Of a stretch of DNA of 44,927 nucleotides, positions 4,340-23,685 are shown piece by piece. The translations under genes and the position numbers were made by a program. The DNA lies in contig MFKJ01000023.1 in NCBI GenBank assembly GCA_001779535.1, positions 1 to 44,927 of the forward strand. Reading direction: 5' to 3'. Positions within the stretch are counted from its first letter, which is position 1. Each line of letters begins with the position of its first letter. Source of the DNA: Candidatus Jorgensenbacteria bacterium RIFCSPHIGHO2_02_FULL_45_20 (GTDB lineage: Bacteria > Patescibacteriota > Minisyncoccia > UBA6257 > GWB1-50-10). Below the pieces are notes generated by a model. It ran no database searches, was not told where the DNA came from, and saw nothing but the letters and a program-made list of their open reading frames with translations.

Positions 4340-4486
4340 TTATTGGCGAAAAGAAGCGACTGGTCTTTTCCAATTAAATAGACAACAAAGAAATTTTTTA
4401 GTTGTCCCAATTTATTTTTTTTGAGGATTTGATCCTGGTCCAGGATGAACGTTGGCGGCGTGGATAAGGCATGCAAGTCGAACGGG

Positions 4487-4552
4487 CCAGTGCGTAGCAC
4501 TGGAATGACGATCCGCCGGTTGGCGGATGGAAATTCCACTGCTATGCAGTGG
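4487..4552 (+). repeat. Family-A three-hairpin module, short form, in the 16S helix-6/V1 position
   Basis: ccagtgcgtagcactgg-aatgac-gatccgccggttggcggat-ggaaattcc-actgctatgcagtgg. It matches 20781-20846 in the 23S at 64 of 66 nt. Confidence 0.85.
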
Positions 4553-4643
4553 CTAGTGGCAAACGAGCTAGTAACACCTTGGTACCTACCTCCGAGATGG
4601 GAATAATCTTGCGAAAGCAGGACTAATACCCAATGGCGCCATA

Positions 4644-4790
4644 CGCATCTCACTAAGGTGAGATGCGAATTCGAAATTTAAAATTTGAAATTCGAAATGA
4701 ATGAATCAATTATAAAATTGAATAATTAAAAATTCATTAAAAATTTCAAACTAAAAATTAAAAATTCGCACAGAACTTTAGTGAGGTGCG
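4644..4790 (+). repeat. Family-B insertion in 16S (V2 region), conserved termini and AT-rich core
   Basis: Starts CGCATCTCACTAAGGTGAGATGCGAAT and ends AAAATTCGCACAGAACTTTAGTGAGGTGCG. The same termini bound 20097-20199 in the 23S, and they interrupt an otherwise alignable 16S sequence. Confidence 0.8.
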
Positions 4791-5048
4791 GGTGGCTAAA
4801 GGTTCGCAAGAACCGCTCGGTGATGGGCCTAGGTCCGATCAGCTAGTTGGTAGGGTAACGGCCTACCAAGGCTACGACCGGTAGGGGAGGTGAGAGCCTG
4901 TTCCCCAGCGAGGAAACTGAGACACGGTTCCTACTCCTACGGGAGGCAGCAGTCGAGAATATTCCACAATGGGCGAAAGCCTGATGGAGCGACGCCGCGT
5001 GCAGGATGAAGCTTTTCGGAGTGTAAACTGCTTTTCTAAGGGAAGAAG

Positions 5049-5178
5049 CCGGTGCTTCGCACTGGAATGACGAATTTAGAATTTCGATTGAATTTCAGAA
5101 TGTTTTAAAAATTAACTCATTCAAGAATTCATTTAAAATTCAAAATTAAAAATTGGAAATTCCAATGCGGAGCATTGG
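5049..5178 (+). repeat. Family-A module, long form (AT-rich filler replaces hairpin 2), in the 16S helix-17/V3 position
   Basis: H1 is ccggtgcttcgcactgg, followed by aatgac, about 90 nt of AT-rich filler starting gaatttagaatttcga, then ggaaattcc and H3 ccaatgcggagcattgg. Confidence 0.8.
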
Positions 5179-5205
5179 TTGACGGTACTTTAGGAATAAG
5201 TCACT

Positions 5206-5245
<40 letters not shown>

Positions 5246-5489
5246 AAACGTTATCCGGATTTATTGGGCGTAAAGGGCGCGTAGGGGGCGCAGGCAAGTC
5301 CGTAGTTAAATCTCGGGGCTCAACTCCGAAACCGCTACGGAAACTACCGCGCTAGAGGACGTTAGAGGTAGATGGAACGCACGGTGTAGGGGTGAAATCC
5401 GTTGATATCGTGCGGAACACCAAAGGCGAAGGCATTCTACTGGGACGTTCCTGACCCTGAGGCGCGAAAGCGTGGGGAGCAAAAAGGAT

Positions 5490-6115
5490 TAAGTGTTTTT
5501 GTTTTATATTCACAAATAATTCTTCGTTTGTTATAAACCGGAATAATTTTTATTTTTCGTTTTCACGAAAAATATTGAACTCAACCCCTCGACGAGCTCG
5601 GGGGATTCAAACAGCAATATTTTTCTAACTTCAAATAAAAATTATTACGCGATTTATGAAACAAATTCAGAAAATATTTGTTCAATAAAACAAAAACCCA
5701 CCTGAGGGTAGGTGGAAAATAGTCCCTCCGCCGATTGGCGGAGATAACTCAGCTATATGCTGGAACACCCGAGTATCCAACGATACCGAAAGGTAAAAAT
5801 GCGTTGGTGCGGGCAATCAGCAGGGAAGTCGTAATTGACCCCTCAGAGACTATACGCAGAGCCCGTTGCGGAGCAACGGAATTACGAATTTAGAATTTCG
5901 AATTTTGGTTGAGCATCCAATTAAAAATTTGAAATTAAAAATTAGGAATTCCGCGCTTTGCGCGGTGAAGATATAGTCCGACCTCCGTGGCGACACGGAG
6001 AGATGAACAGAAATGATTCATCCCGCGACAATGTTTGTAATTTTGATTTTGAATTTGTTTTAAAATTTGAAATTAAAAATTAAAAATTGCACTTTGTCGC
6101 GAAGCAACAAACGTG
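5490..6115 (+). ncRNA. Group I intron in 16S at E. coli position 788, with no ORF
   Basis: It splits the universal GGAT|TAGATACCC. The 5' exon ends in U and the insert ends in G. The core strings TCAGAGACTATACGC and GAAGATATAGTCCGACCTCCGTGGCGACACGGAGAGATGAAC closely parallel the Tetrahymena LSU intron strings ACAGACUAAAUGUC and AAGAUAUAGUCGGACCUCUCC...GGAUGAAG (P7/P9 region). Confidence 0.8.
5863..5965 (+). repeat. Family-A module, long form, nested in the group I intron at the predicted P8 position
   Basis: H1 ccgttgcggagcaacgg is identical to the H1 at 21610-21626. It is followed by aattac, filler starting gaatttagaatttcga, ggaattcc, and H3 ccgcgctttgcgcgg. Confidence 0.75.
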
Positions 6116-6475
6116 TAGATACCCTTGTAGTCCACGCCCTAAACGATGTTCACTAGCTGTTTCGAGTATCGACCCTCGGGGTGGCGTAGCTAACGCGTTA
6201 AGTGAACCGCCTGGGAAGTACGAGCGCAAGCTTAAAACTCAAAGGAATAGACGGGGACTCGCACAAGCGGTGTGGTATGTGGTTTAATTCGATGGTAAAC
6301 GAGAAACCTCACCAGGGCTTGAAATCCCGACGAAGACAGTCCGAAAGGATTGTTGTCCGCAAGGACGGCGGGACAGGTGCTGCATGGTTGCCGTCAGCTC
6401 GTGCCGTGAGGCGTTCCCTTAAGTGGGGTAACGAGCGCAACCCCTATCCGGTGTTACAAGTGTCACCGGAAACCG

Positions 6476-6524
6476 CCCCCTCTTTTGCATCCGACGTTTT
6501 GTATGTCGGAATCAAAAGAGGGGG
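6476..6524 (+). other. Extended hairpin replacing the short 16S hairpin upstream of GGAGGAAGG
   Basis: CCCCCTCTTTTG...CAAAAGAGGGGG (12-bp stem) encloses an inner CCGAC/GTCGG hairpin. E. coli has only about 14 nt here (CCAGTGATAAACTGG). Confidence 0.7.
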
Positions 6525-6885
6525 AGGAAGGCGGGGATGACGTCAAATCAGCATGGCCCTTTGATGCCCTGGGCTACACACATGCTACAATGGCGGATAC
6601 AATGGGAAGCCAAGCCGTAAGGCGGAGCTAATCCCATCAAAGTCCGCCCCAGTTCGGATTGAGGGCTGCAACTCGCCCTCATGAAGCCGGAATCGCTAGT
6701 AATCGCGGATCAGAACGCCGCGGTGAATACGTTCTCGAGTCCTGTACTCACCGCCCGTCAAACCAAGGGAGCCGGGAGTGGGTGAAGCCCCCTCTTTAGA
6801 GGGTGTTAGCTCAAGTTCGGTGACACGGGTTAAGTCGTAACAAGGCACGGGTAGCGGAAGCTGTTCGTGGATCAATTAATTTTGT

Positions 6886-6920
6886 CGATTGCAAATCGCT
6901 GGAAGCAATTCGCTTTTTTT
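6886..6920 (+). terminator. Possible intrinsic terminator after the 16S
   Basis: Imperfect stem CGATTGC...GCAATTCG followed by CTTTTTTT. Confidence 0.35.
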
Positions 6921-7069
6921 CCGCCTTTATAAGTTAAGGCAAGAATGGCGGATAGCTTCAAGCGAGCTGCATTTGTCGCGCTGAAAAACAAGCGCAAAAA
7001 ACAGAGATGCCGTACTCTTAAAAAACGGCGCATAATTGGGGCAACTAAAAAGTTTCTTTAAAGAATATT

Positions 7070-7444
7070 ATGAAAATTCTACTCGTGGAAGACGAACCGC
7101 TTCTCGGTAACCTGCTTCGCGAGCGGCTCGCGCGGGAGGGTTTTGACGTAACACACGCGAAAAACGGCGAAGAAGGATTCGAATTATTGAAAAAATCCGT
7201 ACCGGATTTGGTGCTTCTTGACATTATTCTGCCGAAAATGTCCGGTTTTGAGTTTATGGAAAAAGTCAGAACTGATTCGGAACTCCAATCCGCTCCGCCT
7301 ATAGTGATTATCTCTAACTTAGGGCAGGACGGAGATATAGAGCGTGGGCAAGAATTGGGGGCTGTGGGGTATTTCATAAAAGCCAAGATTTCGATGGAGG
7401 ACTTGGTTTCAAAAATAAAGGAATATATGTTCCCCGCTACATAA
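7070..7444 (+). CDS. Stand-alone response-regulator receiver (CheY-like)
   Basis: 124 aa: MKILLVEDEP..., DLVLLDIILPKMSGFE, and the conserved K in YFIKA. Confidence 0.9.
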   Translation: MKILLVEDEPLLGNLLRERLAREGFDVTHAKNGEEGFELLKKSVPDLVLLDIILPKMSGFEFMEKVRTDSELQSAPPIVIISNLGQDGDIERGQELGAVGYFIKAKISMEDLVSKIKEYMFPAT

Positions 7445-7447
7445 AAG

Positions 7448-7456
7448 TTATCCACA
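7448..7456 (+). promoter_or_regulatory. Exact TTATCCACA (DnaA-box consensus) within the palindrome ATCCACAGTGGAT, upstream of pilin 1
   Basis: Read directly from the sequence. TATAAT follows at about 7485. Confidence 0.5.
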
Positions 7457-7527
7457 GTGGATTCTACACAGATATATATATATTGTATAATTGAACTAAT
7501 AAATAAAAGTCAAAACATTTAAATAAT

Positions 7528-8091
7528 ATGCACTCACAGGCAAAAAAAGGTTTTACCCTTATCGAGCTTTTGGTCGTTATCGCCATTCTCGCGGTTTTGG
7601 CAACCGCCATAGTCGTTATTTTGAATCCGTCCCAACTGTTAAAACAGAGTAGGGATTCAACGAGATTGTCCGATTTAGCGGCCTTAAACAGCGCTATAGC
7701 TTTATATCTTGCCGATTACGCAAGCGCGGCTTTTACTTCATCCACAAAATGCACGGGGAACATTAATCCGTCAGGTATCGCATGCGCTGGCAATGTTTCA
7801 ACATCAACGGTTGTTACCGGTACGGGATGGGTTACTATTGATTTTACTGACATCTCTTCCGGTTCTCCTTTAGCGCGTCTGCCGCTCGACCCGGTTAATA
7901 ACGATACATACGCGTACGCTTTTAAGAGCACCGCGTCTCCAACAAACACTTTTGAAATAGACGCGAGGATGGAAAGCTCAAAATATTCTTCGACGACACC
8001 GGCTTCAAGTATGACTGTAAATACCAAAGACGGCGGCAACGACGATGACTTTTACGAGATAGGAAACGATCCTGGGTTGGACTTGGAGTAA
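7528..8091 (+). CDS. Type IV pilin-like protein (prepilin N-terminal cleavage/methylation domain)
   Basis: MHSQAKKG|FTLIELLVVIAILAVLA is the class III signal peptide followed by the hydrophobic helix. Confidence 0.9.
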   Translation: MHSQAKKGFTLIELLVVIAILAVLATAIVVILNPSQLLKQSRDSTRLSDLAALNSAIALYLADYASAAFTSSTKCTGNINPSGIACAGNVSTSTVVTGTGWVTIDFTDISSGSPLARLPLDPVNNDTYAYAFKSTASPTNTFEIDARMESSKYSSTTPASSMTVNTKDGGNDDDFYEIGNDPGLDLE

Positions 8092-8124
8092 TATTTTCGG
8101 TATGTAAATAACAAAAAAGCGTTG

Positions 8125-8133
8125 TTATCCACA
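8125..8133 (+). promoter_or_regulatory. Exact TTATCCACA upstream of pilin 2; it sits in the loop of an AAAAAAGCG/CGCTTTTTT hairpin
   Basis: Read directly. TATAAT at 8155-8160 lies 6 nt upstream of the ATG at 8167. Confidence 0.5.
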
Positions 8134-8166
8134 GCGCTTTTTTGTTATTTCTGCTATAATAAGAGA

Positions 8167-8718
8167 ATGCAAGCATACAAAAAGGGTTTTACCCTTATTG
8201 AGCTTTTGGTCGTTATCGCCATTCTCGCGGTTTTGGCAACCGCGGTTGTCGTAATTCTTAATCCTGCCGAGCTTGTAAAACAAGGGAGGGATTCTACGAG
8301 AATTTCAGACCTTGCCGCGCTCCACAGCGCGATAGCGCTTTATCTATCGGATGTAAACGGAGCAAGTATAACATCGACAGAAACATGCACGGCGGCTCTT
8401 TCAAGCCCGCCGACTAACTTTACATGCGGAAGCATTTCAACCTCAACCGTTGTTACGGGTACCGGGTGGGCACCAATCGATTTTACTGATATCTCTTCCG
8501 GTTCTCCTTTAGCGCGTCTGCCGCTCGACCCGGTGAATGATACGACTTACGCGTATACTTTTCAGGGCGGTTCATTGAATACTTTTGAAATAGACGCGAA
8601 TATGGAAAGTACTAAATACGCGAGTGGAGGCGGAGGTGATGTTGAATCCAATAACAAAGACGGCGGCAATGATGACACATATTACGAAATAGGCAACGAC
8701 CCCGGGCTTGATTTGTAG
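8167..8718 (+). CDS. Type IV pilin-like protein, paralogue of 7528-8091 (ORF opens at 8122; ATG at 8167 gives a normal leader)
   Basis: MQAYKKG|FTLIELLVVIAILAVLA. It shares near-identical blocks with the first pilin. Confidence 0.9.
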   Translation: MQAYKKGFTLIELLVVIAILAVLATAVVVILNPAELVKQGRDSTRISDLAALHSAIALYLSDVNGASITSTETCTAALSSPPTNFTCGSISTSTVVTGTGWAPIDFTDISSGSPLARLPLDPVNDTTYAYTFQGGSLNTFEIDANMESTKYASGGGGDVESNNKDGGNDDTYYEIGNDPGLDL

Positions 8719-8719
8719 T

Positions 8720-9322
8720 ATGCTCCGTGGAATCGTTCCGGTTTTTTCGTTCGCTCTTCTCGCGGCATTGTTTTTCGTTCAGGTTTTTTTGCATAAAAAA
8801 GAAAGCGTTGAACGGCGCGACGCACTCATCGAACGTGCCGCTAAAATAGTTTTTGTTTTGGGACTTGCGGCCGTATTAGGGTATTATTTTTTTCTTGTAG
8901 CCGCTCAATACTCGACGTGGAAGAATTCCAATCCTCCTTTGAGTTTTCTCGTGCCTCCGTATAGAAGCATAGGATACGTCTTTTATTATCACTTTACACG
9001 TTTTCTTTTATATTACCTGCCGTCTTTTGTTGTTTCCGCGGCCATATTTATAAGCGCGAAATACGGAAACAAGCGATTCGGAGAACATTTTTTTGAGAGC
9101 GGCGAACCATATCTTGCGGCTGTTCCGCTTTTTCTCCTTGGGTATCCGGAATGGAATTATTTATGGATTCCTTATTTTCTCGCGGTTTTGGGGACGGTAT
9201 TCGCGGTTTCGCTGTTTCGAATAATTGCGGCGAAGCGGCAGGAAAGGTTTTCGCCTTATTTTTTATGGTTGCCTGTGGCAATAATTGGTATAATCGTTAG
9301 TGAGACGTCAGTGTTGTTTTAA
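8720..9322 (+). CDS. Integral membrane protein, function unknown
   Basis: ORF 8708-9322 with several hydrophobic segments. It lies inside the pilus cluster but shows no clear A24 prepilin-peptidase motifs. Confidence 0.55.
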   Translation: MLRGIVPVFSFALLAALFFVQVFLHKKESVERRDALIERAAKIVFVLGLAAVLGYYFFLVAAQYSTWKNSNPPLSFLVPPYRSIGYVFYYHFTRFLLYYLPSFVVSAAIFISAKYGNKRFGEHFFESGEPYLAAVPLFLLGYPEWNYLWIPYFLAVLGTVFAVSLFRIIAAKRQERFSPYFLWLPVAIIGIIVSETSVLF

Positions 9323-9334
9323 GTTTTTCAAATT

Positions 9335-11050
9335 ATGCTGTCTTTACCCACACAACAGATTAAAGAAATGCTGGTTCAAGCCGGAGTTTTGGACGACGCG
9401 ACTTTTGATTCTATCAAAATTGAAGCCGACCGCAAAAGACAAAACGTTGCCGACCTTATTATTTCCGAAGGGCTTATAAACAAGGAATACTTCTTTAACC
9501 TTTTGGCTAAAACGCTTGGGTTCGAGCGTATAAATCTTGGCATTCAAAAAATAGACGAGCGCGTTATGAATTTGGTATCGGAAGACATGGCGCGCCAGCG
9601 CAAGATTATCGTTTTCAACCGCGGCGATGACGGAGCTTTTGATATAGCGATGGAAAATCCGACCGACCTTGAAACAATTGACTTTCTGTCATTACGGCTC
9701 AAGTCAAAAATCAAACCGTTTCTGGCGACCGAAGAAGACCTTAACCGCGGATACCTTTTGTACCACAAACGCCTCACGCAGGATTTTAAAAAGGTGATAG
9801 AAGACGGCATTCAGAAATCGCTTCGTTCAAAAAATAAAGGAGATTTGAACGAAGCCGCAAAAGATGTTCCGATTGTGGCTCTCGTTGATAATCTTCTCGA
9901 ATACGCCCTGTCTTCGCGCGCGTCTGACGTGCATTTTGAGGCGCTCGACGACGCGATTCTGGTGCGTTTCCGGATAGACGGCGTTTTGCACGAAATAATA
10001 AAAATGCCGAAAGAAATACACCCTGCCGTAGTTGCCAGAATGAAAATACTTTCAGGTCTTCGGGTAGACGAGCACACTCATCCGCAGGATGGACGTTTCA
10101 GACATAAGATAAGTGATACGCTTGTTGATATCCGTGTATCCGTGATACCGACGTTTTATGGCGAGAAGGTGGAAATGCGTCTTCTGAGCGCCGCGCAGAA
10201 ACCGATATCGCTTACCGAACTCGGAATGTTTGAAAATACGATAAAAGTAATCGAGGAAGGCGTGAAAAAAACATACGGAATGGTACTTCTCTGCGGACCG
10301 ACCGGTTGCGGAAAAACCACGACTTTGTATTCGATAATGAATATACTGAACCGTCCGGAAGTAAATATCGTAACAATCGAGGACCCGATAGAATACGATA
10401 TGAGATATCTGAATCAGACGCAGGTTAATATGGCGGCGGGTATTACGTTCGCTTCCGGTTTGCGTTCGATCCTCCGTCAGGACCCGAACATAATAATGGT
10501 TGGAGAGATACGCGACCACGAGACCGCCGACATAGCCGTGCAGTCAGCCCTTACCGGACACCTGGTTCTTTCGAGCTTGCACACGAACGACGCGCCGACA
10601 ACGGTTCCCCGTCTTATGGATATGGGGGTGCCGCCGTTTCTTGTTTCCGCGGTTTTGAATGTTATATGCGCTCAGCGTCTCGCCCGCAAAATTCATTTAG
10701 ATTGCATTGAATCGTACACTCCGTCTGAAGAATCGCTGAAAGCTCTCCAATCGGAATTCAGAAGCGCGGAGGTTAATGAAAACGTGGTAAAAGTGCCTAA
10801 AGTGCTCTACAGGGGAAGAGGATGCCCCGCGTGCAATAATACCGGTTTTTTGGGGCGGCTCGGTATTTTTGAAGCGATGAATATAACAGAAGAAGTGCGG
10901 AAATTGATAATAAGCCCTGAATTCAATCTGGATAATCTCCGGAAACTTGCCAAAAAAGAAGGGATGACGACAATGTTTGAAGACGGAATGCGAAAGGTTG
11001 AGCTTGGAATGACAACCGTGGAAGAGGTTTTGAGAGTGATAAGAGAATAA
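9335..11050 (+). CDS. pilB: Type IV pilus assembly ATPase (GspE/PilB family)
   Basis: 571 aa with an N-terminal T2SSE_N-like domain, Walker A GPTGCGKTTT, the Asp/His boxes, and the C-terminal CxxC tetracysteine region RGCPACNNTGF. Confidence 0.95.
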   Translation: MLSLPTQQIKEMLVQAGVLDDATFDSIKIEADRKRQNVADLIISEGLINKEYFFNLLAKTLGFERINLGIQKIDERVMNLVSEDMARQRKIIVFNRGDDGAFDIAMENPTDLETIDFLSLRLKSKIKPFLATEEDLNRGYLLYHKRLTQDFKKVIEDGIQKSLRSKNKGDLNEAAKDVPIVALVDNLLEYALSSRASDVHFEALDDAILVRFRIDGVLHEIIKMPKEIHPAVVARMKILSGLRVDEHTHPQDGRFRHKISDTLVDIRVSVIPTFYGEKVEMRLLSAAQKPISLTELGMFENTIKVIEEGVKKTYGMVLLCGPTGCGKTTTLYSIMNILNRPEVNIVTIEDPIEYDMRYLNQTQVNMAAGITFASGLRSILRQDPNIIMVGEIRDHETADIAVQSALTGHLVLSSLHTNDAPTTVPRLMDMGVPPFLVSAVLNVICAQRLARKIHLDCIESYTPSEESLKALQSEFRSAEVNENVVKVPKVLYRGRGCPACNNTGFLGRLGIFEAMNITEEVRKLIISPEFNLDNLRKLAKKEGMTTMFEDGMRKVELGMTTVEEVLRVIRE

Positions 11051-11281
11051 CAAACAACCGACAACCCGCAACATATAACGCATTTGTATTAGGAATTATA
11101 GGTTTGAAATCGGAAGTCAGCTGGCTCGATGTATGAAACTTTAGCGGCTGTTGATATTTTAGAGTATAATAGTTTCATAAGTCCGGAGGATCGTAACGAA
11201 TGTAGAAAATCTCCTTGTGGTTGTCTCGAAACAGCTTGGCGGATTCAAAAAGAAATTAAGTTCAAAAATTGGTTAATTTTT

Positions 11282-12493
11282 ATGCAATTTCATTGCGTAG
11301 CGTCCCAACAGGATGGAAAAATAATCGAGAGTGATATAGATGCCCGAGGAGTAGAAGAAGTGCTTGCCGTTTTAAGCGCGCGCGGTCTTCATCCCGTGAG
11401 CATCAAACTCGCGACGACCGCAAAAGGAAGAATGGATAGGAAAATTTTCGGCGGGAACATAACCCTTACTGACCAGGTATTTATATCAAAATATCTGGCT
11501 CTTATGCTTAAAATAGGCACCGGTTTACTGCAGGCAATTAACATTCTGATTGATGACTTTAGTAAACCATCGGTCCATTCTTTTTTGGTGGAGGTAAAGA
11601 CGAATCTTGAAAAAGGCATGCAATTCTATTACGCGTTCGCGCGCCATCCTAAAATATTCAGCCAGGTTTACATAAATTCCATAAAGGCGGGAGAAACGTC
11701 CGGCAATCTTGAATCGGTTTTTGATGACCTTGCCGTTTCCCTGTCTAAAGAAAAGGCGTTGCGCGACCAGATAAAGAGCGCTCTTTTTTATCCGGTTATA
11801 TTGTTTGTGATGTCCATACTCATTCTTGTTTTCCTTGTTATGTTTGCTCTTCCGAAAATAGCCGGTGTGTTTTCCGAAAGCGGTTTCGACCCGCCCATTT
11901 TTTCAAAAGTGGTATTCGCCGTAGGTTTTTTCTTCGGCGACTACGGATTATGGATACTTCTTGCGGGCATAATCTGCTTTGCTGTTTTATTTGTTGGTTA
12001 TAGGACGTCACTCGTTTTCAAAAAATTTATTTTAAGCATTCTTTTTAATCTGCCGCTCGTACGCGACGTAGTGAAGAAGATTTCGATACAGCGTTTTGCG
12101 GCAACGCTTTCGTCGCTTATCAAGGCCGGGATGCAGATTACGGATGCTCTCGAAATAACGGCGGATTCAATAACCCAGATAGAATTAAAGGAGGCGCTTA
12201 TAAGAATTTCGAAAGAAGGAATCGCGAAAGGACTCACGGTCGGGGAGGCGTTCAAGCGCGAGCCGTTTTTCCCGAAAACAGTCGTTAATTTGGTGGCTAT
12301 ATCCGAACGGGCAGGGCATATAGAAGAGGTTTTGCAGACGCTCGCGGATTTTTACACAAGCGAAATAGACAGTTCTCTTAAAACCCTCGTTTCATTCCTT
12401 GAACCGATTCTTCTCATGGGCATAGGCCTTGTTATAGGCCTTATCGCTCTCGCTATCGTTGTTCCGATTTACCAACTAACCATACAGTTTTAG
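11282..12493 (+). CDS. pilC: Type IV pilus platform protein (GspF/PilC family); ORF opens at 11129 but family homology begins near the ATG at 11282
   Basis: Two T2SSF repeats (KAGETSGNLESVF..., ERAGHIEEVL...) and three transmembrane segments. Confidence 0.9.
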   Translation: MQFHCVASQQDGKIIESDIDARGVEEVLAVLSARGLHPVSIKLATTAKGRMDRKIFGGNITLTDQVFISKYLALMLKIGTGLLQAINILIDDFSKPSVHSFLVEVKTNLEKGMQFYYAFARHPKIFSQVYINSIKAGETSGNLESVFDDLAVSLSKEKALRDQIKSALFYPVILFVMSILILVFLVMFALPKIAGVFSESGFDPPIFSKVVFAVGFFFGDYGLWILLAGIICFAVLFVGYRTSLVFKKFILSILFNLPLVRDVVKKISIQRFAATLSSLIKAGMQITDALEITADSITQIELKEALIRISKEGIAKGLTVGEAFKREPFFPKTVVNLVAISERAGHIEEVLQTLADFYTSEIDSSLKTLVSFLEPILLMGIGLVIGLIALAIVVPIYQLTIQF

Positions 12494-12556
12494 AAAATTC
12501 GAATGTTGAATCAGAAATCTTAATATAGGATTTTTCAACTAAATAATTTTTATACA

Positions 12557-13672
12557 TTGATTCAAAATTCAATCCGCCGACTGGCGGACAAAATTCAAAA
12601 TTCGCGGGAGGCCTTCACGCTCATAGAGCTTATTATCACCGTAGCAGTCGGAGCCGTTTTGACGACCGGAGGTTATGTTATGTTGTCGAGCTATCGCAAC
12701 AGCCAGAATCTGAAACTTACTTTGAATGAGTTCTCGGCGGCGTTACGCGACACGCAGAAAAGAGCGATTACGCAGGAAAACGGCAAACAATGGGGCATAC
12801 GTTTGACTAACGACACAAGCGGCATATATCAGGTATGGAGCGGACAAAGTTTTGCTTCGGGAACTGTGGATCAGACATACGCGCTTAAAAGAAATATTTC
12901 TTTCGGCAACCCGTCGGCAGGGAGTACGATTGATATAATTTTTGAAGCGTTAAGTGGGAAATTAAGCGAGAAAAAAGTGATTACCGTTTATGCCGGAAAT
13001 AGCGGCGCGGATACCGGCGACTTGGTTCTGAATACGTTAGGAAAAACAACCGTGCGGACGGATAAGTATTTTTTAAGCTATTGGCACTTTGATGAAGGAA
13101 CAAGCACAGTCGCTTACGATGCATCAGGCAACGGAAATAGTTCAATTTTATATAATAGTCCATTGTGGCAATCGGGGAGTAGCTGTATAGCCGGCGGATG
13201 TCTGAACTTAAACGGTATGAGCCAGTATTTGAACGCAAGTTCGACAAATATGACAAGTGTAGATAGTTTTACGGTTGCCGGATGGACGTATTTAACCGAC
13301 GTGACGACCACTAATAATACTCTTTATGGCAATTCCGGTACGGTCGAGTTACTTACAAAACCGACAGGATATTATTTTGGCGTATGGGTTGACGGTGTTG
13401 AATATTCAAAACAGGGGACGACCAGTTCGAATATAAACAGCTGGGTTCATTGGGCGCTTACGCGTTCAGACAGCTCGATAGTTGTTTACAGAAATGGCAT
13501 CTCAATTGATTCAAGAAATGATTTGCCGGCAGGAAGCGTCGACGTAAGTGGTTATATCGGAGCGCAAGGAGGTACGAGCTATTATCTTGAAGGAAATTTG
13601 GATGAGCTGCGCGTTTACGGCCGCGCTTTGTCCGCGCAGGAAATTTTAGATATGTACAATGATTTGAAATAA
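12557..13672 (+). CDS. Pseudopilin-like protein with a LamG/concanavalin-A-like domain (TTG start as in the ORF track; exact start uncertain)
   Basis: N-terminal AFTLIELIITVAVGAVL, then WHFDEGTSTVAYDASGNGN... and LDELRVYGRALSAQEI, typical of LamG_3 domains. Confidence 0.8.
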   Translation: MIQNSIRRLADKIQNSREAFTLIELIITVAVGAVLTTGGYVMLSSYRNSQNLKLTLNEFSAALRDTQKRAITQENGKQWGIRLTNDTSGIYQVWSGQSFASGTVDQTYALKRNISFGNPSAGSTIDIIFEALSGKLSEKKVITVYAGNSGADTGDLVLNTLGKTTVRTDKYFLSYWHFDEGTSTVAYDASGNGNSSILYNSPLWQSGSSCIAGGCLNLNGMSQYLNASSTNMTSVDSFTVAGWTYLTDVTTTNNTLYGNSGTVELLTKPTGYYFGVWVDGVEYSKQGTTSSNINSWVHWALTRSDSSIVVYRNGISIDSRNDLPAGSVDVSGYIGAQGGTSYYLEGNLDELRVYGRALSAQEILDMYNDLK

Positions 13673-15045
13673 TGATTAACCAACGACAGACAACTTACAA
13701 CAAACAATTTACGACAGACAACGAGAAGAATATAACAAAAGTTGTCGGTTGTCGGTTGTCGGTTTTTAGTAAACGCGGCGGGCAATCCCTTATAGAGGTC
13801 TTAATTGGGTTGACAATAGGATCTATTCTCATAGGCGCGGCGGCTTTGGGTGTGGCGTTTATGCTCCGTTCGACATCGGCAAACGACAACCTGCAAATGG
13901 CTTCAGGGATGGTGCAGGAATCGCTTGACAAGGTTCGGGCTTATGCCGGAGCGGAGTGGGAAAACATATACGGGCTTACCAAAGGCACGAGCACCGCGTA
14001 TTTTTTAAATGCATCAAGCACAAGCTTTGATATTATCGAGGGGAAAGAAGGTGTTTTCGGTTCGAATATAACAAGCGGGCTTGTGGGGCGATGGAATTTC
14101 GATGAAGCAACCGGAACTATTGCTCACGATTCGACGGGGGGCAACTACAGCGGCATTCTTACAAACAGCCCGACGATAACGACCTCAACATGCAAAATCG
14201 GATACTGCTTAGGCCTCAACGGCAGTAATTATGTGGATATGAGTGACCCCGCAAGCGGAATATTCGATTTCGGCGCAAACGATTTTTCGCTACAAGGATG
14301 GTTTTATATTTCAGCGCTCCCCGGCAGTTATAAGTCAATCATAAATAAAGGCGGTTCGGGAGCGCCAGGATATGGTATGGAAATAGGCGCGGATAACACC
14401 TTAACCTGTTCCATTCAGGCGAGCGGCGGTACAAACCAGCACGTGCAAGGAACGATACCGTCGCTTAACGCGTGGCATCAAGCGACATGCGTTTTCGACC
14501 GCGACGATGGAATATACGCGTATCTTGATGGAGTTGCGGTCGCAAGCTCCACGTACGAAAGCGGCAATACGGGTTCCATTTCAACAGACAGTTACAATTT
14601 GAATGTTGGCCGTTATGCGGGCGGTTCATGGTACTTCAACGGGTATATTGACGACATTCGCGTTTATAACCGCACTCTTTCTTCAGATGAAGTAAAGCGC
14701 GCTTACGACAGCGCTGTTTTCACCAGATATTTCACCATTGAAAATGTATGCAGAACGAATGACGCGTCGAGCACTATAAATGGCGTTACTCCGTGCGCGG
14801 ACGGCTCGCTTGAGGATCCGGCGACGCAGAAAATAAGGTCTTATGTGGAATGGGCGTCGAGTGGCGCCATCGAGGACCTCAATTTGATTGACTATGTTAC
14901 GCGCTGGAAAAATGAAGTATTCCGTCAGAGCGACTGGTCGGGAGGAAGCGGCGATGAAGACGTTTATTCAGAGCCGCCGACATCGTACGCGAGCTCGACA
15001 AATATAGACATTGAAACAGGATCGTTTAGGATACATAATCTATAG
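13672..15045 (+). CDS. Pseudopilin-like protein with a LamG domain (alternative in-frame TTG start at 13756 gives a normal short leader, MSVFSKRGG|QSLIEV)
   Basis: GQSLIEVLIGLTIGSIL helix, then WNFDEATGTIAHDSTGGN... and IDDIRVYNRTLSSDEV. Confidence 0.8.
   Translation: MINQRQTTYNKQFTTDNEKNITKVVGCRLSVFSKRGGQSLIEVLIGLTIGSILIGAAALGVAFMLRSTSANDNLQMASGMVQESLDKVRAYAGAEWENIYGLTKGTSTAYFLNASSTSFDIIEGKEGVFGSNITSGLVGRWNFDEATGTIAHDSTGGNYSGILTNSPTITTSTCKIGYCLGLNGSNYVDMSDPASGIFDFGANDFSLQGWFYISALPGSYKSIINKGGSGAPGYGMEIGADNTLTCSIQASGGTNQHVQGTIPSLNAWHQATCVFDRDDGIYAYLDGVAVASSTYESGNTGSISTDSYNLNVGRYAGGSWYFNGYIDDIRVYNRTLSSDEVKRAYDSAVFTRYFTIENVCRTNDASSTINGVTPCADGSLEDPATQKIRSYVEWASSGAIEDLNLIDYVTRWKNEVFRQSDWSGGSGDEDVYSEPPTSYASSTNIDIETGSFRIHNL
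13742..13762 (+). repeat. Tandem heptamer (TTGTCGG)x3
   Basis: gTTGTCGGTTGTCGGTTGTCGGt read directly. Complementary CGACAGACAAC copies lie 20-60 nt upstream. Confidence 0.8.
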
Positions 15046-15074
15046 CATGAGTGGGTAGGAAAGCAGTTGGTAGT

Positions 15075-15262
15075 TGGCAAAATGCCAAATGTTCAAATTC
15101 CAAAACAAAGCAGAGAATAATTTTCAATTTACAATTTGAAATTTTTAATGAATACAGCCAAAATGGATTTAAAATGAGAGAAAACCGCGGAAAAGACGGG
15201 TTTGGAATTTCAGAATTTGGACATTTGGATTTGTTTAGAGTTTAGAACTTAGGATTTAGAGC
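15075..15262. repeat. AT-rich GAATTT/AAATTC-type repeat tract in an intergenic region, related to the rRNA insertion filler
   Basis: Contains the hairpin ttggcaaaatgccaa, caaattcc ... ggaatttcagaatttggacatttggatttgtttagagtttagaacttaggatttagagc. Confidence 0.55.
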
Positions 15263-15326
15263 TTGAAACCAAATTTATCCGCGTAAATCCGTTAAAATAT
15301 GTATTAATCAGCGTCTATCCAAAAAT

Positions 15327-16205: not shown

Positions 16206-16244
16206 GTCGGATTTGGTTTATATTCAATTCGCGCGTTACATTAT

Positions 16245-18441: not shown

Positions 18442-18600
18442 TTGCTTATTATGATTAAAGTATACACCATTTTTGCGCAGACGCTCTCTACCTATATAAA
18501 ACAAAAAATAAGATGTAATCGTTACGAAACTTGTTTACTGAAACGTTCTTCCGTTATTCAAATGGTGTTTTGGTTATAAAGAGATTGCGTTTCGGATAAT

Positions 18601-18634
18601 AACACTCCAACATTCTCAAAAATGTTGGAGTGTT
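18601..18634 (-). terminator. 14-bp perfect hairpin downstream of the bL25 gene
   Basis: AACACTCCAACATT / AATGTTGGAGTGTT with a 6-nt loop, and an A/T-rich flank. Confidence 0.5.
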
Positions 18635-18646
18635 ATGTTCTCGTTT

Positions 18647-19744: not shown

Positions 19745-20096
19745 CATAATTACGAATTAGAAATGGATAAAAACGTCAAATATTACGCGGGCGGTTCGTC
19801 CTAAGTAAGCGTTTTTAGAACGCACCGGTCCGCCTCTAACGGCGGAATTTTTTTATCGTTTCGGAGAATCGACTGATGTTTTATAAATAAATAGCGAAAT
19901 CAGTTTTTTGAGGTAGAAATTATATCCGCTTGTTTTTATGGGAAGAAGCACGTAAGGGTGGATGGAGGATGCCTTGGCATTAAATGGCGACGAAGGACGC
20001 GGCGTAGCGGCGATACTCTTCGGGTAGGTGCGTAGCAACCTGTGATCCGGAGATGTCCGAATGGGGAAACCCTCTGCGGAAAACCCGCAGAACCGG

Positions 20097-20199
20097 CGCA
20101 TCTCACTAAGGCGAGATGCGAATGATTAAATTTTTATTTTTGTAATTTTATAAATAGAATTTCAAATTGAAAATTCGCATAGAACTTTAGTGAGGTGCG
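20097..20199 (+). repeat. Family-B insertion in 23S domain I
   Basis: Starts CGCATCTCACTAAGGCGAGATGCGAAT and ends AAAATTCGCATAGAACTTTAGTGAGGTGCG. The termini are near-identical to those at 4644-4790. Confidence 0.8.
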
Positions 20200-20254
20200 T
20201 TGGAGCGCACCTGGTGAAGTGAAACATCTCAGTAACCAGAGGAAAATAAAACAA

Positions 20255-20316
20255 GTCGTGCCTCACTTTTGTTCGGCACTCGATTTTATCGGTGGCGAGC
20301 AAGAGCGAGGCACGAA
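20255..20316 (+). other. Unclassified ~62-nt hairpin insertion in the 23S
   Basis: It interrupts GGAAAATAAAACAA | GAAAGATTCCCTGAGTAGCGGCGAGCG. The closing stem is GTGCCTC/GAGGCAC. Confidence 0.65.
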
Positions 20317-20317
20317 A

Positions 20318-20348
<31 letters not shown>

Positions 20349-20362
20349 GAAGCCTAAACCAG

Positions 20363-20428
20363 CCGACGCATAGCATCGGAACGACGATCCGCCAGCTGGC
20401 GGATTGAAATTCCGCTGCTATGTAGCGG
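20363..20428 (+). repeat. Family-A module, short form, in the 23S
   Basis: ccgacgcatagcatcgg-aacgac-gatccgccagctggcggat-tgaaattcc-gctgctatgtagcgg. Confidence 0.8.
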
Positions 20429-20675
20429 GTGGGGTTGCAAGGCAGGAAAAATTTTGCGTTTCGCGTAGGACTTCGCAAGAATAATTGCGCGAATCGCGAA
20501 AGTTGGTTACAAATCAGCTTGGTTAGCCGAAGTTATTGGAACGTAACACCAAAGAGGGCGAACGTCCCGTAGGCGAAAACCATGCGACCAATTTTTTTCT
20601 GTTCTTAAGTACCTCGAGGCCAAAATACCACGAGGGAAGCCGGGAGTACTATCTCCCAAGGCTAAATACATTTAA

Positions 20676-20718
<43 letters not shown>

Positions 20719-20780
20719 GCCCTGTTAGGGCGATGAAATAGTACCTGAAACCATCCACTTACAAAGAACCGGAGCACTGA

Positions 20781-20846
20781 CCAGTGCGTAGCACTGGAAT
20801 GACGATCCGCCAGCTGGCGGATGGAAATTCCACTGCTATGCAGTGG
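20781..20846 (+). repeat. Family-A module, short form, in the 23S
   Basis: Identical to the 16S copy at 4487-4552 except for the hairpin-2 loop (AGCT versus GGTT). Confidence 0.85.
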
Positions 20847-20952
20847 CGTGTGACGGTGTGCCTATTGAAGAATGAGCCAACGAGTTTATTTATATTGCGT
20901 GTCTAAGTCCGAGAAGGACGGAGGCGTAGGGAAACCGAGTGTTAATAGCGCG

Positions 20953-21100
20953 TATCGTGTCTCACCATCGTTCAGCACACGCTGATCTATGCCAATTGAG
21001 CCAATGATTAATGTGGATTATGTTGAAATGCATATCCGTATAAATCATTCTCAAGTCCGTGTTAATCCGTATCAGTGCCGAACGGTAGCGAGACACGATA
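20953..21100 (+). other. Unclassified ~148-nt long-hairpin insertion in the 23S
   Basis: The 11-bp closing stem TATCGTGTCTC/GAGACACGATA interrupts ...GTTAATAGCGCG | AGCAGTATGAATAAGACCCGAAACC. Confidence 0.7.
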
Positions 21101-21609
21101 AGCAGTATGAATAAGACCCGAAACCAGACGAGCTTGCCCTGGCCAGGGTGAAGTCCCGCGAAGGCGGGATGGAGGCCCGAACCGGTTGGTTGTTCAACAC
21201 CTTCGGATGAGTTGGGGTAAGGAGTGAAAAGCTAATCGAGTTTGGTAATAGCTGGTTCTCTCCGAAATAGTTTTAGGACTAGCGTCGGAATAAGATTCTC
21301 GGGGGTAGAGCACTGGATGATCGTGAAAGGGAGAAATCTCGCGCGATCAATCAAACTCCGAATACCGAGATATTGTTTTCCGGCAGTCAGACTACGGGGG
21401 CTAAGCTCCGTGGTCGCGAGGGGAAGAGCCCAGATCGCCGTCTAAGGTCCCCAAGTCCATGCTAAGTGTTAAAGGTGGTCGCGTTCCATAAACAGATAGG
21501 AGGTTGGCTTAGAGGTAGCCATCCTTTAAAGAGTGTGTAACAACTCACTATTCGAGGAATGCGGCGCCGAAAATTTATCGGGGCTCAAGCATGGCACCGA
21601 AGACGCGGA

Positions 21610-21781
21610 CCGTTGCGGAGCAACGGAAGCTCCAAATTCCAGATTCCAAATTCTAAATAAATTCTAAATTCTAATTTTCAAATATCAAAACGAATAATTG
21701 TTTTGGTCATTTGAATTTTGTGCTTTGATATTGTTTAGGACTTGGTGTTTGGTGCTTGGGATTTCCGTCGCTTCGCGACGG
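21610..21781 (+). repeat. Family-A module, long form, at the 23S helix near E. coli ~1170
   Basis: H1 ccgttgcggagcaacgg, then AT-rich filler with AAATTC repeats (the inverse of GAATTTAGAATTT), then gggatttcc and H3 ccgtcgcttcgcgacgg. Confidence 0.75.
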
Positions 21782-22452
21782 TGGTAGGAGAGCATTCCAT
21801 GAGCACTGAAGCAGAACCCGTGAGGGGCTGTGGAGCGCATGGAAGAGAGAATGTTGGCATTAGTAATCGCAATCCCGATGAAAACTCGGGACCCCGAAAA
21901 TCCAAGGTTTCCTCCGCAACGAAAATCGACGGAGGGTAAGGCGGCCCTAAGGCAATGGCGAAAGCCGCAGCCGATGGACAGCCGGTTAATATTCCGGCCC
22001 TCCCGCTTTTTTTCGATGAAGTGACGAAGCAAAGTAGATTGAACGTCTTAATGGTTTGATGTTTTTGACCGAGTGTGGGTGCTAGGCAAATCCGGCATCC
22101 TGGATTCAATTCCGAACATCAGGGTAGAAACGAGGTAGGGTTTTTTGCCTTGCCAAGTCAATCGAGCTTGTTTCCGAGAAAAGCTTCTAGAGCTAAAAAA
22201 GTGGGATCCGTACCGTAAACCGCCACAGGTGGGTGAGGCGAGAAGCCTCAGGGGAACGTGTGAGTCCTCGTTAAGGAACTCGGCAAAAAAGCTAGGCGTA
22301 ACTTTGGGATAAGCCTTGCCAGTGCTTCGCACTGGCCGCAGCTAAAGTATCTCTAGCGACTGTTTACCAAAAACACAGCTCCCTGCGAACTCGTAAGAGG
22401 AAGTATAGGGGGTGACGCCTGACCGATGCGAGAAGGTTAACGATGGGGGTTC

Positions 22453-22518
22453 CCAGTGTGCAGCACTGGAATGACGATCCGCCAGCTGGCGGATGGAAGT
22501 TCCAACGCTGTGCGTTGG
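22453..22518 (+). repeat. Family-A module, short form, in 23S domain IV
   Basis: ccagtgtgcagcactgg-aatgac-gatccgccagctggcggat-ggaagttcc-aacgctgtgcgttgg. Confidence 0.8.
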
Positions 22519-23377
22519 GGGCTCACTGTCCGAAGCCCTCGTCAATGTCCGCGGTAACTATAACCGTGTTAAAGTAGCGCAATTCCTTTCCGGGTAAGTT
22601 CCGGAGCGCATGAAAGGCGTAACGACTGGAGAACTGTCTCAACGAGGAGCTCGATGAACGTGCGATACCCGTGAAGACGCGGGTTACCGGCAGCAAGACG
22701 AAAAGACCCCGGAAGCTTTACTGTAGCTTGATATTGGGAGTAATAGTGTAATGCGTAGCATAGTGGGGAGACTTTGAAAGTTCGCTTTCGGGCGGACCGG
22801 AGTCGCCAGTGAAATACCCATCTTTATATTGTTGCTTTCTAACCCGTACGGCAAAAACGTATGGGGACAGTGTCTGGCGGGCAGTTTTTCTGGGGCGGAA
22901 CCCTCCTAAAAAGTAACGGAGGGGCCTATTATGGTCAGCTTGGCGCGGATGGAAATCGCGCCTAAAGTGCAAACGCAAAAGCTGGCTTGACTGCAAGACT
23001 TACAAGTCGCGCAGGTGCGAAAGCAGAGGTTAGCGACCCGACTATTCTTTATAGAAAGGTAGGAGATAACGGACAAAAGTTACTCCGGGGATAACAGGCT
23101 GGTGTTGTCTGAGCGTCCCTAGCGACGACAACGCTCGGCACCTCGATGTCGGCTCACCACATCCCGGGGGTGGAGAAGCTCCCAAGGGTTTGGCTGTTCG
23201 CCAATTAAAGTGGTACGCGAGCTGGGTTCAAACCGTCGTGAGACAGGTTGGTCTCTATCTGCTGTCGGCGTGGGTGTTTGAGGGAAGTTGGCCCTAGTAC
23301 GAGAGGACCGGGCTGAACGAACCTCTGGTCTATCGGCTTTGCCACCAGGTGAATTGCCGAGTAGCTAAGTTCGGACA

Positions 23378-23411
<34 letters not shown>

Positions 23412-23478
23412 CTCCCAAGATTAAACACTAGTTCCGGGCAACTGGAACAACGCTTCCTGGAAGATTACCAGGTAAAAG

Positions 23479-23553
23479 CCGGTGCGTAGCACCGGAATGA
23501 TGATCTGTTATTAAGTTTGTTGAACAGATGGAAATTCCGTTGCTATGCAACGG
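23479..23553 (+). repeat. Family-A module with a variant hairpin 2, near the 23S 3' end
   Basis: ccggtgcgtagcaccgg-aatgat-gatctgtt...aacagat-ggaaattcc-gttgctatgcaacgg. Confidence 0.8.
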
Positions 23554-23685
23554 CGAATAGGCTCTAGGTGTAAGCGCAGTAATGCGTTCAGCCGAGGAGT
23601 ACTAAAAGTGTTATGTTTTTTCCCATTTCAATAAGCGGTAAAATTTCTATCTCAAAAAGCTGGTTTCGAAAATAAAAATTATTAT

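Follow-up and report, generated by a model that had tools for sequence, protein, structure and literature searches.

Introduction

Intervening sequences (IVSs) excised by RNase III are found at helices H25 and H45 of the 23S rRNA of Salmonella, Yersinia and Campylobacter, at H9 in Rhizobiales, in Leptospira and in Coxiella, and more rarely in the 16S rRNA of Helicobacter and Campylobacter. The bulge-helix-bulge introns of Thermoproteales transpose among archaeal tRNA and rRNA genes and occur as near-identical copies at different positions. Correia elements that lie within transcripts are cut by RNase III. [quoted passage not shown]

Bacterial rRNA IVSs, which are treated in PMC11270868 and PMC4990558, are short, AT-rich inserts at the tips of peripheral helices, including H25 and H45, with paired ends that form a stem coaxial with the host helix and with a sporadic distribution. 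The elements reported here share all of these traits. IVSs are regarded as selfish and horizontally spread. [quoted passage not shown] According to Brown et al., as cited in a passage of PMC11270868, rRNA insertions of CPR bacteria are removed from transcripts. The survey of CPR bacteria by Tsurumaki et al. 2024 detected insertions of at least 100 bp (PMC11270868). Its insertions resemble the elements described below in their hosts, in occurring many to an rRNA gene, and in including short sequences (<200 bp) that lack ORFs and are neither group I nor group II introns. The survey is without families that share termini, sharing between 16S and 23S rRNA, and copies in RNase P RNA, all of which are added here (PMC11270868).

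[quoted passage not shown] An exact protein match assigns the window to Candidatus Jorgensenbacteria of the Rifle aquifer data sets, and to the species of GCA_001002015.1. Family 2 consists of IVS-like elements with invariant ends, shared by 16S rRNA, 23S rRNA, rRNA spacers and RNase P RNA. In contrast to classical IVSs, it is a single sequence family occupying about 15 sites across these RNAs. Its 24-nt termini are near-invariant across many candidate phyla, its left end is palindromic and its architecture is that of a double hairpin. Family 2 also differs from classical IVSs in clear recent copying between sites of one genome, and its excision is proposed here only by analogy. The family is apparently undescribed and widespread.

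Two inserts with shared termini in the window

The window contains the 16S rRNA gene, about 13 kb of protein genes, the 23S rRNA gene and a 5S gene, in this order. The protein genes between the 16S and 23S genes include type IV pilus genes and genes for an aldolase, a release factor, L25 and L31.

4417..6882, + strand: host gene, 16S rRNA, 2466 nt, with several insertions
19942..23624, + strand: host gene, 23S rRNA, 3683 nt, with about 12 insertions relative to E. coli

A group I intron match lies inside the 16S gene at 5625-6000, and other insert families occupy the ~270, H25, H45 and H68 sites of the 23S gene. Among 30 ORFs of the window, Pfam scans detected neither RNase III nor an RNA ligase, a transposase or an endonuclease.

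The sequence-only reading that preceded this analysis had placed related inserts at 4644-4790 and 20097-20199, and both their sequences and their positions are correct; the lengths are 147 and 103 nt. The inserts share 27 nt at the 5' end and 30 nt at the 3' end, with one mismatch in each. The 27-nt pattern has exactly two matches in the window, at 4644 and 20097, and the 30-nt pattern exactly two, at 4761 and 20170, all on the + strand only. Neither pattern occurred in 100 dinucleotide-preserving shuffles. The AT-rich cores of the two inserts are unrelated to each other. Rfam alignments locate the 16S insert in a hairpin loop at model positions 178-197, corresponding to h9 (E. coli ~189). The 23S insert falls into the loop of H10 (E. 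coli ~150-176), the next hairpin after H9. The remaining host stems were delimited by folding.

4638..4642, + strand: remaining h9 host stem, 5' strand GCCAU, predicted to pair with 4792-4796 (GUGGC)
4644..4790, + strand: family-2 element, 16S copy, 147 nt, in place of the h9 tip
4644..4667, + strand: left end (LE) of the 16S copy, CGCATCTCAC-TAAG-GTGAGATGCG, delimited by the consensus from 58 copies
4668..4766, + strand: variable AT-rich core of the 16S copy, the distal part of the rod
4767..4790, + strand: right end (RE) of the 16S copy, CGCACAGAAC-TTTA-GTGAGGTGCG, an imperfect inverted repeat of the LE
4792..4796, + strand: remaining h9 host stem, 3' strand, from the predicted fold
20093..20096, + strand: H10 host stem, 5' strand CCGG, predicted to pair with 20200-20203 (UUGG)
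20097..20199, + strand: family-2 element, 23S copy, 103 nt, in place of the H10 tip
20097..20120, + strand: LE of the 23S copy, CGCATCTCAC-TAAG-GCGAGATGCG
20121..20175, + strand: variable AT-rich core of the 23S copy
20176..20199, + strand: RE of the 23S copy, CGCATAGAAC-TTTA-GTGAGGTGCG
20200..20203, + strand: H10 host stem, 3' strand, from the predicted fold

A sequence identical to the 16S copy is present in a metagenome locus (L057). The 23S copy scores 62 bits with a covariance model built from 59 family termini, a score that is partly given by construction, since the copy itself is among the 59. At this site, a short native H10 hairpin is present in most of the 23 further distinct 23S sequences used for comparison, and none of the 23 carries a family-2 element at H10.

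Directly downstream of the 16S gene, the covariance model gives 23 bits to a hairpin at 6886-6975. This was ruled out as a member, being a long hairpin of a generic kind whose sequence bears no similarity to the family.

Size of the family and conservation of its ends

Two collections were scanned for the termini. A 22-mer of the LE was searched against the GTDB species representatives (one genome per species) and gave 23 stretches, and a degenerate 22-mer of the RE was searched against metagenomes and gave 48. After orientation and de-duplication, these stretches and local searches together yield no fewer than 58 different full copies, 92-215 nt long with a median of 159 nt, and several variant copies in addition. 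The sources comprise many Parcubacteria-group MAGs and groundwater metagenomes. Record titles from the first scan name Brenner-, Colwell-, Taylor-, Terry- and Jorgensenbacteria, 'Parcubacteria' and 'Paceibacterota', and a few MAGs are labelled Saccharibacteria or Gammaproteobacteria; all labels are as deposited. Each locus spans only ~8 kb around its match, so that copies with diverged ends elsewhere in those genomes would be missed. The true family is larger and more diverse than the sample, since exact-match scans catch only well-conserved ends.

The consensus of the copies consists of a flanking G, CGCATCTCACTAAGGYGAGATGCT, the core, AGCACCGARCTTTAGTGAGGTGCG and a flanking T. As RNA, the 24-nt LE reads CGCAUCUCAC-UAAG-GYGAGAUGCU and is a palindrome, and the 24-nt RE reads AGCACCGARC-UUUA-GUGAGGUGCG and is an imperfect inverted repeat of the LE. 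The termini are nearly invariant across copies. This conservation is no artefact of the bait, because copies found through one end have a near-invariant other end. In nearly all copies CGCATCTCACTAAGG and CTTTAGTGAGGTGCG form terminal inverted repeats over 15 positions, with DNA-level mismatches T:G at position 5 and G:T at position 14. The cores have a median GC content of 23%, as compared with 50% in the flanking rRNA. A G precedes the element in 40 of 58 copies (position -1); otherwise, no conserved target of 4-5 nt is found 5' of the LE.

In the 71 fetched loci, no ORF is enclosed by an LE and an RE separated by over 700 nt. A group I or group II intron or a known self-cleaving ribozyme was rejected as the identity of the inserts, as no Rfam family reaches its gathering score on them, and relaxed thresholds gave only weak matches to long-hairpin miRNA precursors. 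A literal text search of 8 million papers for the terminus sequences had no match. Apparent solo LE hairpins, considered as empty or footprint sites, are contig-end truncations or variant LEs followed by a core. Carriage by phages was likewise rejected: viral contigs contain no LE, and a single 18-mer RE match lies in a GC-rich gene and is due to chance. At locus L044, an AroA/MurA-like ORF adjoins an RE, but the contig is probably chimeric and of low coverage, and L044 was discarded as an ORF-bearing version of the element. Locus L052 has a lone RE-like 22-mer that abuts a tRNA-Gly gene, follows a small GIY-YIG-like ORF and is without an LE.

Insertion sites and orientation

Insertion sites were placed by mapping the flanks to E. 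coli rRNA, and unclear loci were assigned with Rfam. E. coli coordinates are given for the ~270, ~650 and ~1105 sites because helix names there are approximate. About 15 sites are occupied, in 16S rRNA, 23S rRNA, rRNA spacers and the P3 hairpin of one RNase P RNA:

16S rRNA, h6
16S rRNA, h9: window, L031 and L042
16S rRNA, h17: seven copies
spacer downstream of the 16S gene
leader, 270-320 nt upstream of the 23S gene
23S rRNA, H10: window species only
23S rRNA, ~270: ten copies
23S rRNA, ~300-345
23S rRNA, H25
23S rRNA, ~650-668: nine copies
23S rRNA, ~1105-1119
23S rRNA, H45: eight copies
23S rRNA, H63: five copies
23S rRNA, H68: eight copies
23S rRNA, very 3' end
RNase P RNA, P3 hairpin, L026: RF00010, 98.4 bits, E 1.4e-30

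The RNase P RNA match is just below the RF00010 gathering score of 100 because it is disrupted by the insert, around which the P1/P2 pairing was seen on inspection to be preserved. Four copies share a single 23S gene (L045).

All mapped copies run in the sense direction of the host RNA, without a reversed copy among them, and both strands were searched. With the covariance model, the antisense strand of these copies scores ~20 bits lower than the sense strand. The pattern searches on both strands of the whole collections found no full copy outside a stable-RNA transcription unit. In 51 of 58 copies, the flanks of the element are complementary over their first two positions; the complementarity decays by positions 7-8. 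Target-site duplications of 3 nt or longer do not exceed chance (0, 1 and 0 of 58 copies for k = 3, 4 and 5).

Copying between sites

The cores of random copy pairs have a median global identity of 53%. Copies at different sites of one genome or of close relatives can be far more similar. The cores at 23S ~1105 and ~1863 of L043 are 100% identical, and those at ~270 and H63 (~1703) of L017 are 93% identical. An H68 copy and a ~270 copy (L037 and L045) have cores of 94% identity, a 16S h17 copy and a spacer copy (L034 and L038) of 93%, and a 16S and a 23S copy (L034 and L035) of 85%. The H45 copy of L012 has lost 19 nt of its LE and has the same core as the H68 copy of that locus. At H10, H45, H63, H68 and ~660, many relatives with flanks of 90-98% identity have a short native hairpin instead. 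These empty sites have 2-27 nt between the flanks, and the element takes the place of the helix tip.

The assignment of the two window inserts to one family with conserved termini and a variable middle is borne out by at least 58 distinct copies at ~15 sites. The sequence-only reading had taken this pattern as the mark of a mobile element and not of helix expansion, and had suggested a search for the termini in the rest of the genome and in related bins. Many copies were found in other genomes, their distribution is not that of vertical descent in one of the two rRNAs, near-identical cores recur at different sites of a genome, and the corresponding sites of relatives are empty. The alternative is that the helices grew independently or converged, and that the likeness of the ends is due to chance or to a shared compositional bias. 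It would fit the unrelated cores of the window copies and the general tendency of variable helices to expand. It fails on ends that agree over 27 and 30 nt but for a single mismatch in each and have no match in 100 shuffles, on the recurrence of the same ends in all the copies, and on identical cores at different sites of one genome. The shuffles, the scans of the collections and the shared cores refute this explanation, and we assign it practically no weight. Sequence comparison thus indicates spread by copy and paste, not independent helix growth. Part of the core identity within genomes could be due to gene conversion between existing copies.

Folding of the element RNA

With 6 nt of flanking sequence, the minimum free energy (MFE) structure of each window copy is a single long rod, in which the 5' end is paired with the 3' end, at -57.1 kcal/mol for the 16S copy and -45.6 kcal/mol for the 23S copy. 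Slightly longer segments fold with -58.5 kcal/mol (z -9.9 relative to shuffles) and -48.1 kcal/mol (z -8.0), respectively. The rod consists of 15-16 outer pairs, including two G.U pairs, a 4x4 internal loop, an 8-bp stem UGCGAAUU/AAUUCGCA and an AU-rich tip. The outer 13 pairs have pair probabilities of ~1.0 in the window copies. The rod predicted for the family as a whole is composed of a conserved stem of ~24 positions with tandem G.A/A.G and of an AU-rich distal hairpin, and it is predicted to continue the host helix coaxially.

The LE can also fold on itself. It forms the palindrome GCAUCUCAC-UAAG-GYGAGAUGC, which in the 16S copy is a perfect 10-bp palindrome whose 5' arm pairs with the RE in the rod. 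The RE may form a hairpin of its own, GCACC-GA-AC-UUUA-GU-GA-GGUGC, with tandem G.A. The alternative fold would combine the two terminal hairpins and a core hairpin into a four-way junction with the host helix. Both foldings are possible because the 3' arms of the LE and the RE have almost the same sequence.

The rod is the MFE structure in 58 of 58 copies, with a median advantage of 9.8 kcal/mol. Forcing the local 5' hairpin gives -44.3 kcal/mol for the 16S copy and -30.7 kcal/mol for the 23S copy, which are penalties of 12.8 and 14.9 kcal/mol relative to the rod. Across copies, 83.6% of rod cells are paired and 16 pairs have double-sided changes; none of 500 shuffles gave as high a value, and slid controls gave 32-46%. 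The local hairpins have 77.9% of cells paired, which is also above controls. Covariation separates the rod from the local hairpins only partly, since the 3' arm of the LE is similar in sequence to that of the RE. The rod is supported by co-variation of its first pair (C-G, U.G, U-A), by tetraloops that co-vary and stay complementary (UAAG/UUUA, UCUA/GAGA, UUUC/GUAA), and by a subfamily (L033 and L050b) that is without the LE hairpin and has extra Watson-Crick pairs in the rod. Evidence for the local hairpins is provided by the LE pair U5-A20 and a C-G pair at the equivalent place of the RE, where the rod has U.G and A.C, and by co-variation of RE positions -16 and -9 (A-U, G.U, G-C). In variants L066 and L075, each terminal hairpin has changed with its own compensation and kept its complementarity. 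Cross-pairing of their ends runs for six contiguous pairs up to the first A.C mismatch, of which there are two, and eight of ten positions pair. These variants favour the local hairpins over the rod.

The sequence-only reading had proposed two mutually exclusive structures, as in an excisable sequence or a switch. Both pairings do exist, but their stabilities are unequal and the idea of a switch is unsupported. As a conformational switch, the element would regulate rRNA folding or processing by changing from the local 5' hairpin to the terminal stem and back. Nearly all copies can form both pairings, and the LE hairpin, which is transcribed first, is stable alone (-16.6 kcal/mol in the 16S copy and -12.7 kcal/mol in the 23S copy); the pairs that suit the local hairpins better and the separate co-variation in L066 and L075 are also in its favour. 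On the other side stand the dominance of the rod in every copy, the pair probabilities near 1.0 in the window, and the subfamily without an LE hairpin. Dual pairing is moreover an automatic by-product of a palindromic left end and an inverted-repeat right end. Comparison with Rfam revealed no ligand-binding or known regulatory motif, and no sign of a regulated switch was seen in the folds or the covariation. We therefore consider a switch very unlikely. In our reading of the models, the ends are kept as hairpin-forming inverted repeats and the rod is the predicted stable state of the RNA. The local 5' hairpin is at most a co-transcriptional intermediate and a consequence of the palindromic end.

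Comparison with mobile elements and introns

Bacterial rRNA IVSs and small palindromic or double-hairpin elements inside transcribed genes are the nearest known counterparts of family 2. Family 2 has the structure expected of an IVS, as its inserts at helix tips are absent from homologous rRNAs and have complementary ends that form a long stem. It also has the terminal inverted repeats of a MITE. A classical MITE is ruled out by the missing target duplication and the lack of antisense copies and of copies outside RNA genes. More generally, a cut-and-paste MITE is a poor fit to elements that are restricted to the sense orientation, to helix tips and to the most transcribed structured-RNA genes, and that have terminal hairpins and no target duplication.

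Miniature palindromic or double-hairpin elements include the double-hairpin elements of Allomyces mitochondria (Paquin et al. 2000, as cited in a passage of PMC4478555), the GC clusters of yeast mitochondria (PMC4478555), the Rickettsia palindromic elements and the Neisseria Correia elements. Like family 2, they are small, non-coding and multi-copy, have terminal inverted repeats or hairpins and near-identical copies within a genome, and are tolerated in genes since they are folded out of the way. Their locations are protein genes as well as intergenic DNA, they occur in either orientation, and short target duplications often flank them. In contrast, the 58 copies of family 2 and the further variant copies inspected lie within stable-RNA units, in the sense orientation, at helix tips and without duplication; the exception to the stable-RNA restriction is the lone RE-like 22-mer beside the tRNA gene of L052.

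The bulge-helix-bulge introns of archaea resemble family 2 as short intervening sequences that are near-identical across stable-RNA genes, which suggests copying and pasting between RNA genes in both cases. The host of family 2 is a bacterium, and a bulge-helix-bulge intron is ruled out by the junction, which is a continuous helix in place of two 3-nt bulges on either side of a 4-bp helix: the nucleotides at -1 and +1 pair in 51 of 58 copies, and element pairs 1-15 are formed. A derivative of single-strand transposons of the IS200/IS605 type would be expected to have hairpins at both ends, to insert in a strand-specific way and to leave no target duplication. Family 2 has terminal hairpins, strict strand specificity and no target duplication; its hairpins are exactly terminal and not subterminal, the only target preference is the G at -1 (40 of 58), and no TnpA was found.

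Fate and spread of the element

The element was copied repeatedly into peripheral helix tips, or replaced them, in 16S and 23S rRNA, also in spacers, and once in RNase P RNA. It is necessarily transcribed within the precursor of the host RNA. We consider it probable, with a good margin of doubt, that the inserts are copies of a non-coding, hairpin-forming, IVS-like mobile element of 92-215 nt that is specific to stable-RNA genes of bacteria of the Parcubacteria group (CPR). By analogy with classical bacterial rRNA IVSs, the conserved double-stranded base would be a processing signal, and an endonuclease of the RNase III type, specific for double strands, would cut the rod out of the precursor. 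The stub of the host helix would then hold the rRNA fragments together. The product would be a fragmented yet functional RNA, which would make the element nearly neutral and selfish. We infer excision from the occupation of the classical H25 and H45 sites, the IVS-like architecture, the AT-rich unconstrained cores and the literature on the removal of CPR insertions.

The rods could instead be modular expansion segments that stay in the mature ribosome and RNase P. Their 24-bp base with tandem G.A would dock a lineage-specific protein or RNA, and the segments would have been duplicated because they are useful. Several of the sites are surface helices that have expansion segments in other lineages (h6, h9, h17, H25, H45 and H63), and the termini are conserved in sequence beyond the requirements of pairing, as is typical for a specific binding site. 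RNA modules that bind a shared protein, such as K-turns, exist, and the copy in P3 of RNase P RNA recalls them. Against retention speak cores of 23% GC that are unconserved between genomes, the wide range of element lengths (92-215 nt), the sporadic occupation of sites among relatives, and unrelated insert families at the same sites in the window. Copies also lie in spacers and leaders, which are discarded anyway, and a passage of PMC11270868 has CPR rRNA insertions removed from transcripts. On balance, retained segments are an unlikely explanation.

Removal of an IVS-like element would leave its termini to be accounted for. To our knowledge, RNase III has no need for a 24-nt conserved sequence, and the extreme terminal conservation is therefore beyond what RNase III processing alone would require. 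The strict conservation may also serve the copying machinery. Neither the window nor the fetched loci yielded a transposase, an endonuclease or an autonomous partner. We tentatively raise a further possibility, to which we give limited weight: family 2 may represent a new class of mobile element that is strand-specific for hairpin tips of highly transcribed structured-RNA genes, might move by way of an ssDNA or RNA intermediate, with recognition of its own terminal hairpins, and would be removed in a sequence-specific manner at the 24-bp base. A mechanism based on ssDNA or RNA hairpins would jointly account for the sense-only orientation, the insertion at helix tips without duplication, and the restriction to rRNA operons and RNase P RNA. 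If this were true, much of the insert load of CPR rRNA, including the other double-hairpin families of the window, would stem from such elements.

A third insert family and implications

A 66-nt rod in the 23S gene belongs to a third insert family and is possibly a distant relative of family 2.

20253..20318, + strand: 'third family' rod, 66 nt, possible distant relative, outer stem CGUGCCUCAC/GCGAGGCACG

It matches the covariance model with 31.7 bits (E 2.7e-5) and folds with -42 kcal/mol (z -8.0). The reverse-complemented RE of family 2 is similar to the 5' part of this rod. The third family is also found at 23S H10 in L018, L025 and L055. As it resembles a flipped family-2 element, orientation may not be absolutely fixed over long times.

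At least part of the short insertions in CPR rRNA forms a coherent family, with invariant ends, sense orientation, positions at helix tips and rapid turnover within genomes. The two 24-nt ends and the covariance model provide a searchable signature, with which such inserts can be annotated or masked in surveys of Parcubacteria 16S and 23S genes. The occupied sites are a natural experiment on which helices of rRNA and RNase P RNA tolerate additions of 100-200 nt. The inserts also offer a defined substrate for finding the putative processing enzyme by which CPR bacteria would remove them. Family 2 is a testable case of how selfish elements come to specialise in the genes for stable RNAs where genomes are tiny and nearly devoid of intergenic space.

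Other insert types in the rRNA genes

A second repeated insert module of ~77 nt, distinct from the hairpin-forming family-2 element, is present in the window and corresponds to the first family of the sequence-only reading. A third insert type is a 66-nt rod.

Inserts and neighboring features of the window rRNA genes
4482-4558, copy of the ~77-nt module
20358-20434, copy of the ~77-nt module
20776-20852, copy of the ~77-nt module
22448-22524, copy of the ~77-nt module
5044-5180, expanded or degenerate version of the module
5858-5905, expanded or degenerate version of the module
21610-21725, expanded or degenerate version of the module
23474-23555, expanded or degenerate version of the module
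20253-20318, 66-nt rod, folding at -42 kcal/mol (z -8)
5490-6115, 626-nt insertion in the 16S gene, after E. coli position ~788
6886-6975, long hairpin directly 3' of the 16S end, -42.3 kcal/mol (z -4.4)

The ~77-nt module has the sequence CCAGTGC-GTAG-CACTGG AATGACGATCCGCC-AGCT-GGCGGATGGAAATTCC ACTGC-TATG-CAGTGG and is composed of a central hairpin and two terminal hairpins, a plan that it shares with family-2. The terminal hairpins are distinguished by a compensated G-C/C-G swap, because of which their cross-pairing would be disfavoured. The module occupies 16S helix h6 and position ~272 and helices H25 and H68 of the 23S rRNA, and AT-rich-expanded versions are located in 16S h17 and 23S H45. 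Matches to its exact core are confined to loci from this one species.

When the family-2 right end, CGCACCTCACTAAAGTTCGGTGC, is reverse-complemented, it is similar, apart from compensated swaps, to the 5' part of the 66-nt rod, CGTGCCTCACTTTTGTTCGGCAC; the family-2 covariance model gives the rod a score of 31.7 bits. This third family also has longer versions, which fill 23S H10 in three of the loci fetched around matches to family-2 ends (L018, L025 and L055).

Within the 626-nt 16S insertion, positions 5625-6000 match a group I intron at 57.9 bits. The insertion has no evident ORF for a homing endonuclease, and the nearby ORF at 6202-6540 is without a Pfam match. The hairpin following the 16S gene has no sequence likeness to the insert families; it could act as a stem for processing or as a terminator.

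Gene content of the window

Between the 16S gene and the 23S gene lie ~13 kb of protein-coding sequence (6883-19941), with genes for a response regulator, pilins, PilB/PilC-like T2SSE/T2SSF proteins, an aldolase, RF-1, a transglycosylase, L25 and L31. The whole window has no tRNA genes. A 500-aa ORF (42320-43822, + strand) combines LexA DNA-binding, S24 peptidase and N6/N4 DNA methylase domains, and is an unusual fusion.

Inserts in RNase P RNA and in other Parcubacteria, and a family-like sequence beside a tRNA gene

In fetched locus L026, a family-2 element (199-329) is inserted in P3 of a class A RNase P RNA (170-636). The RNA scores 98.4 bits, just under the Rfam gathering score of 100, because the insert lowers its score; RNase P genes with such inserts may therefore escape annotation. 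Apart from the copies in rRNA operons and RNase P RNA, the sole family-like sequence seen is a right-end-like 22-mer, CACCGAGCTTTAGCGAGGTGCG, at L052 1130-1180. A partial duplicate of the 22-mer precedes it, and its last-named neighbors are an 89-aa GIY-YIG-like ORF, which it follows, and a tRNA-Gly gene, with whose 5' end it shares three nucleotides (GCG). The left end was not found at this locus. Within the 23S rRNA gene of L058, a 145-nt Rfam tRNA match (6905-7049, 45.5 bits), at which ARAGORN detected no tRNA, may be spurious or may mark a tRNA-like insert.

The helix tips used by family-2 also hold further insert families in other Parcubacteria.

Loci with further insert families
L034, 16S h9
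L030, L032 and L043, 23S H10
L048, 16S h9

These inserts, one of which starts CCGTGCTTTGCACGG-AAATCC, are built of an AT-rich core between two GC-rich terminal hairpins. The general plan and the helix tips that they have in common with family-2 suggest a broader superfamily of double-hairpin inserts.
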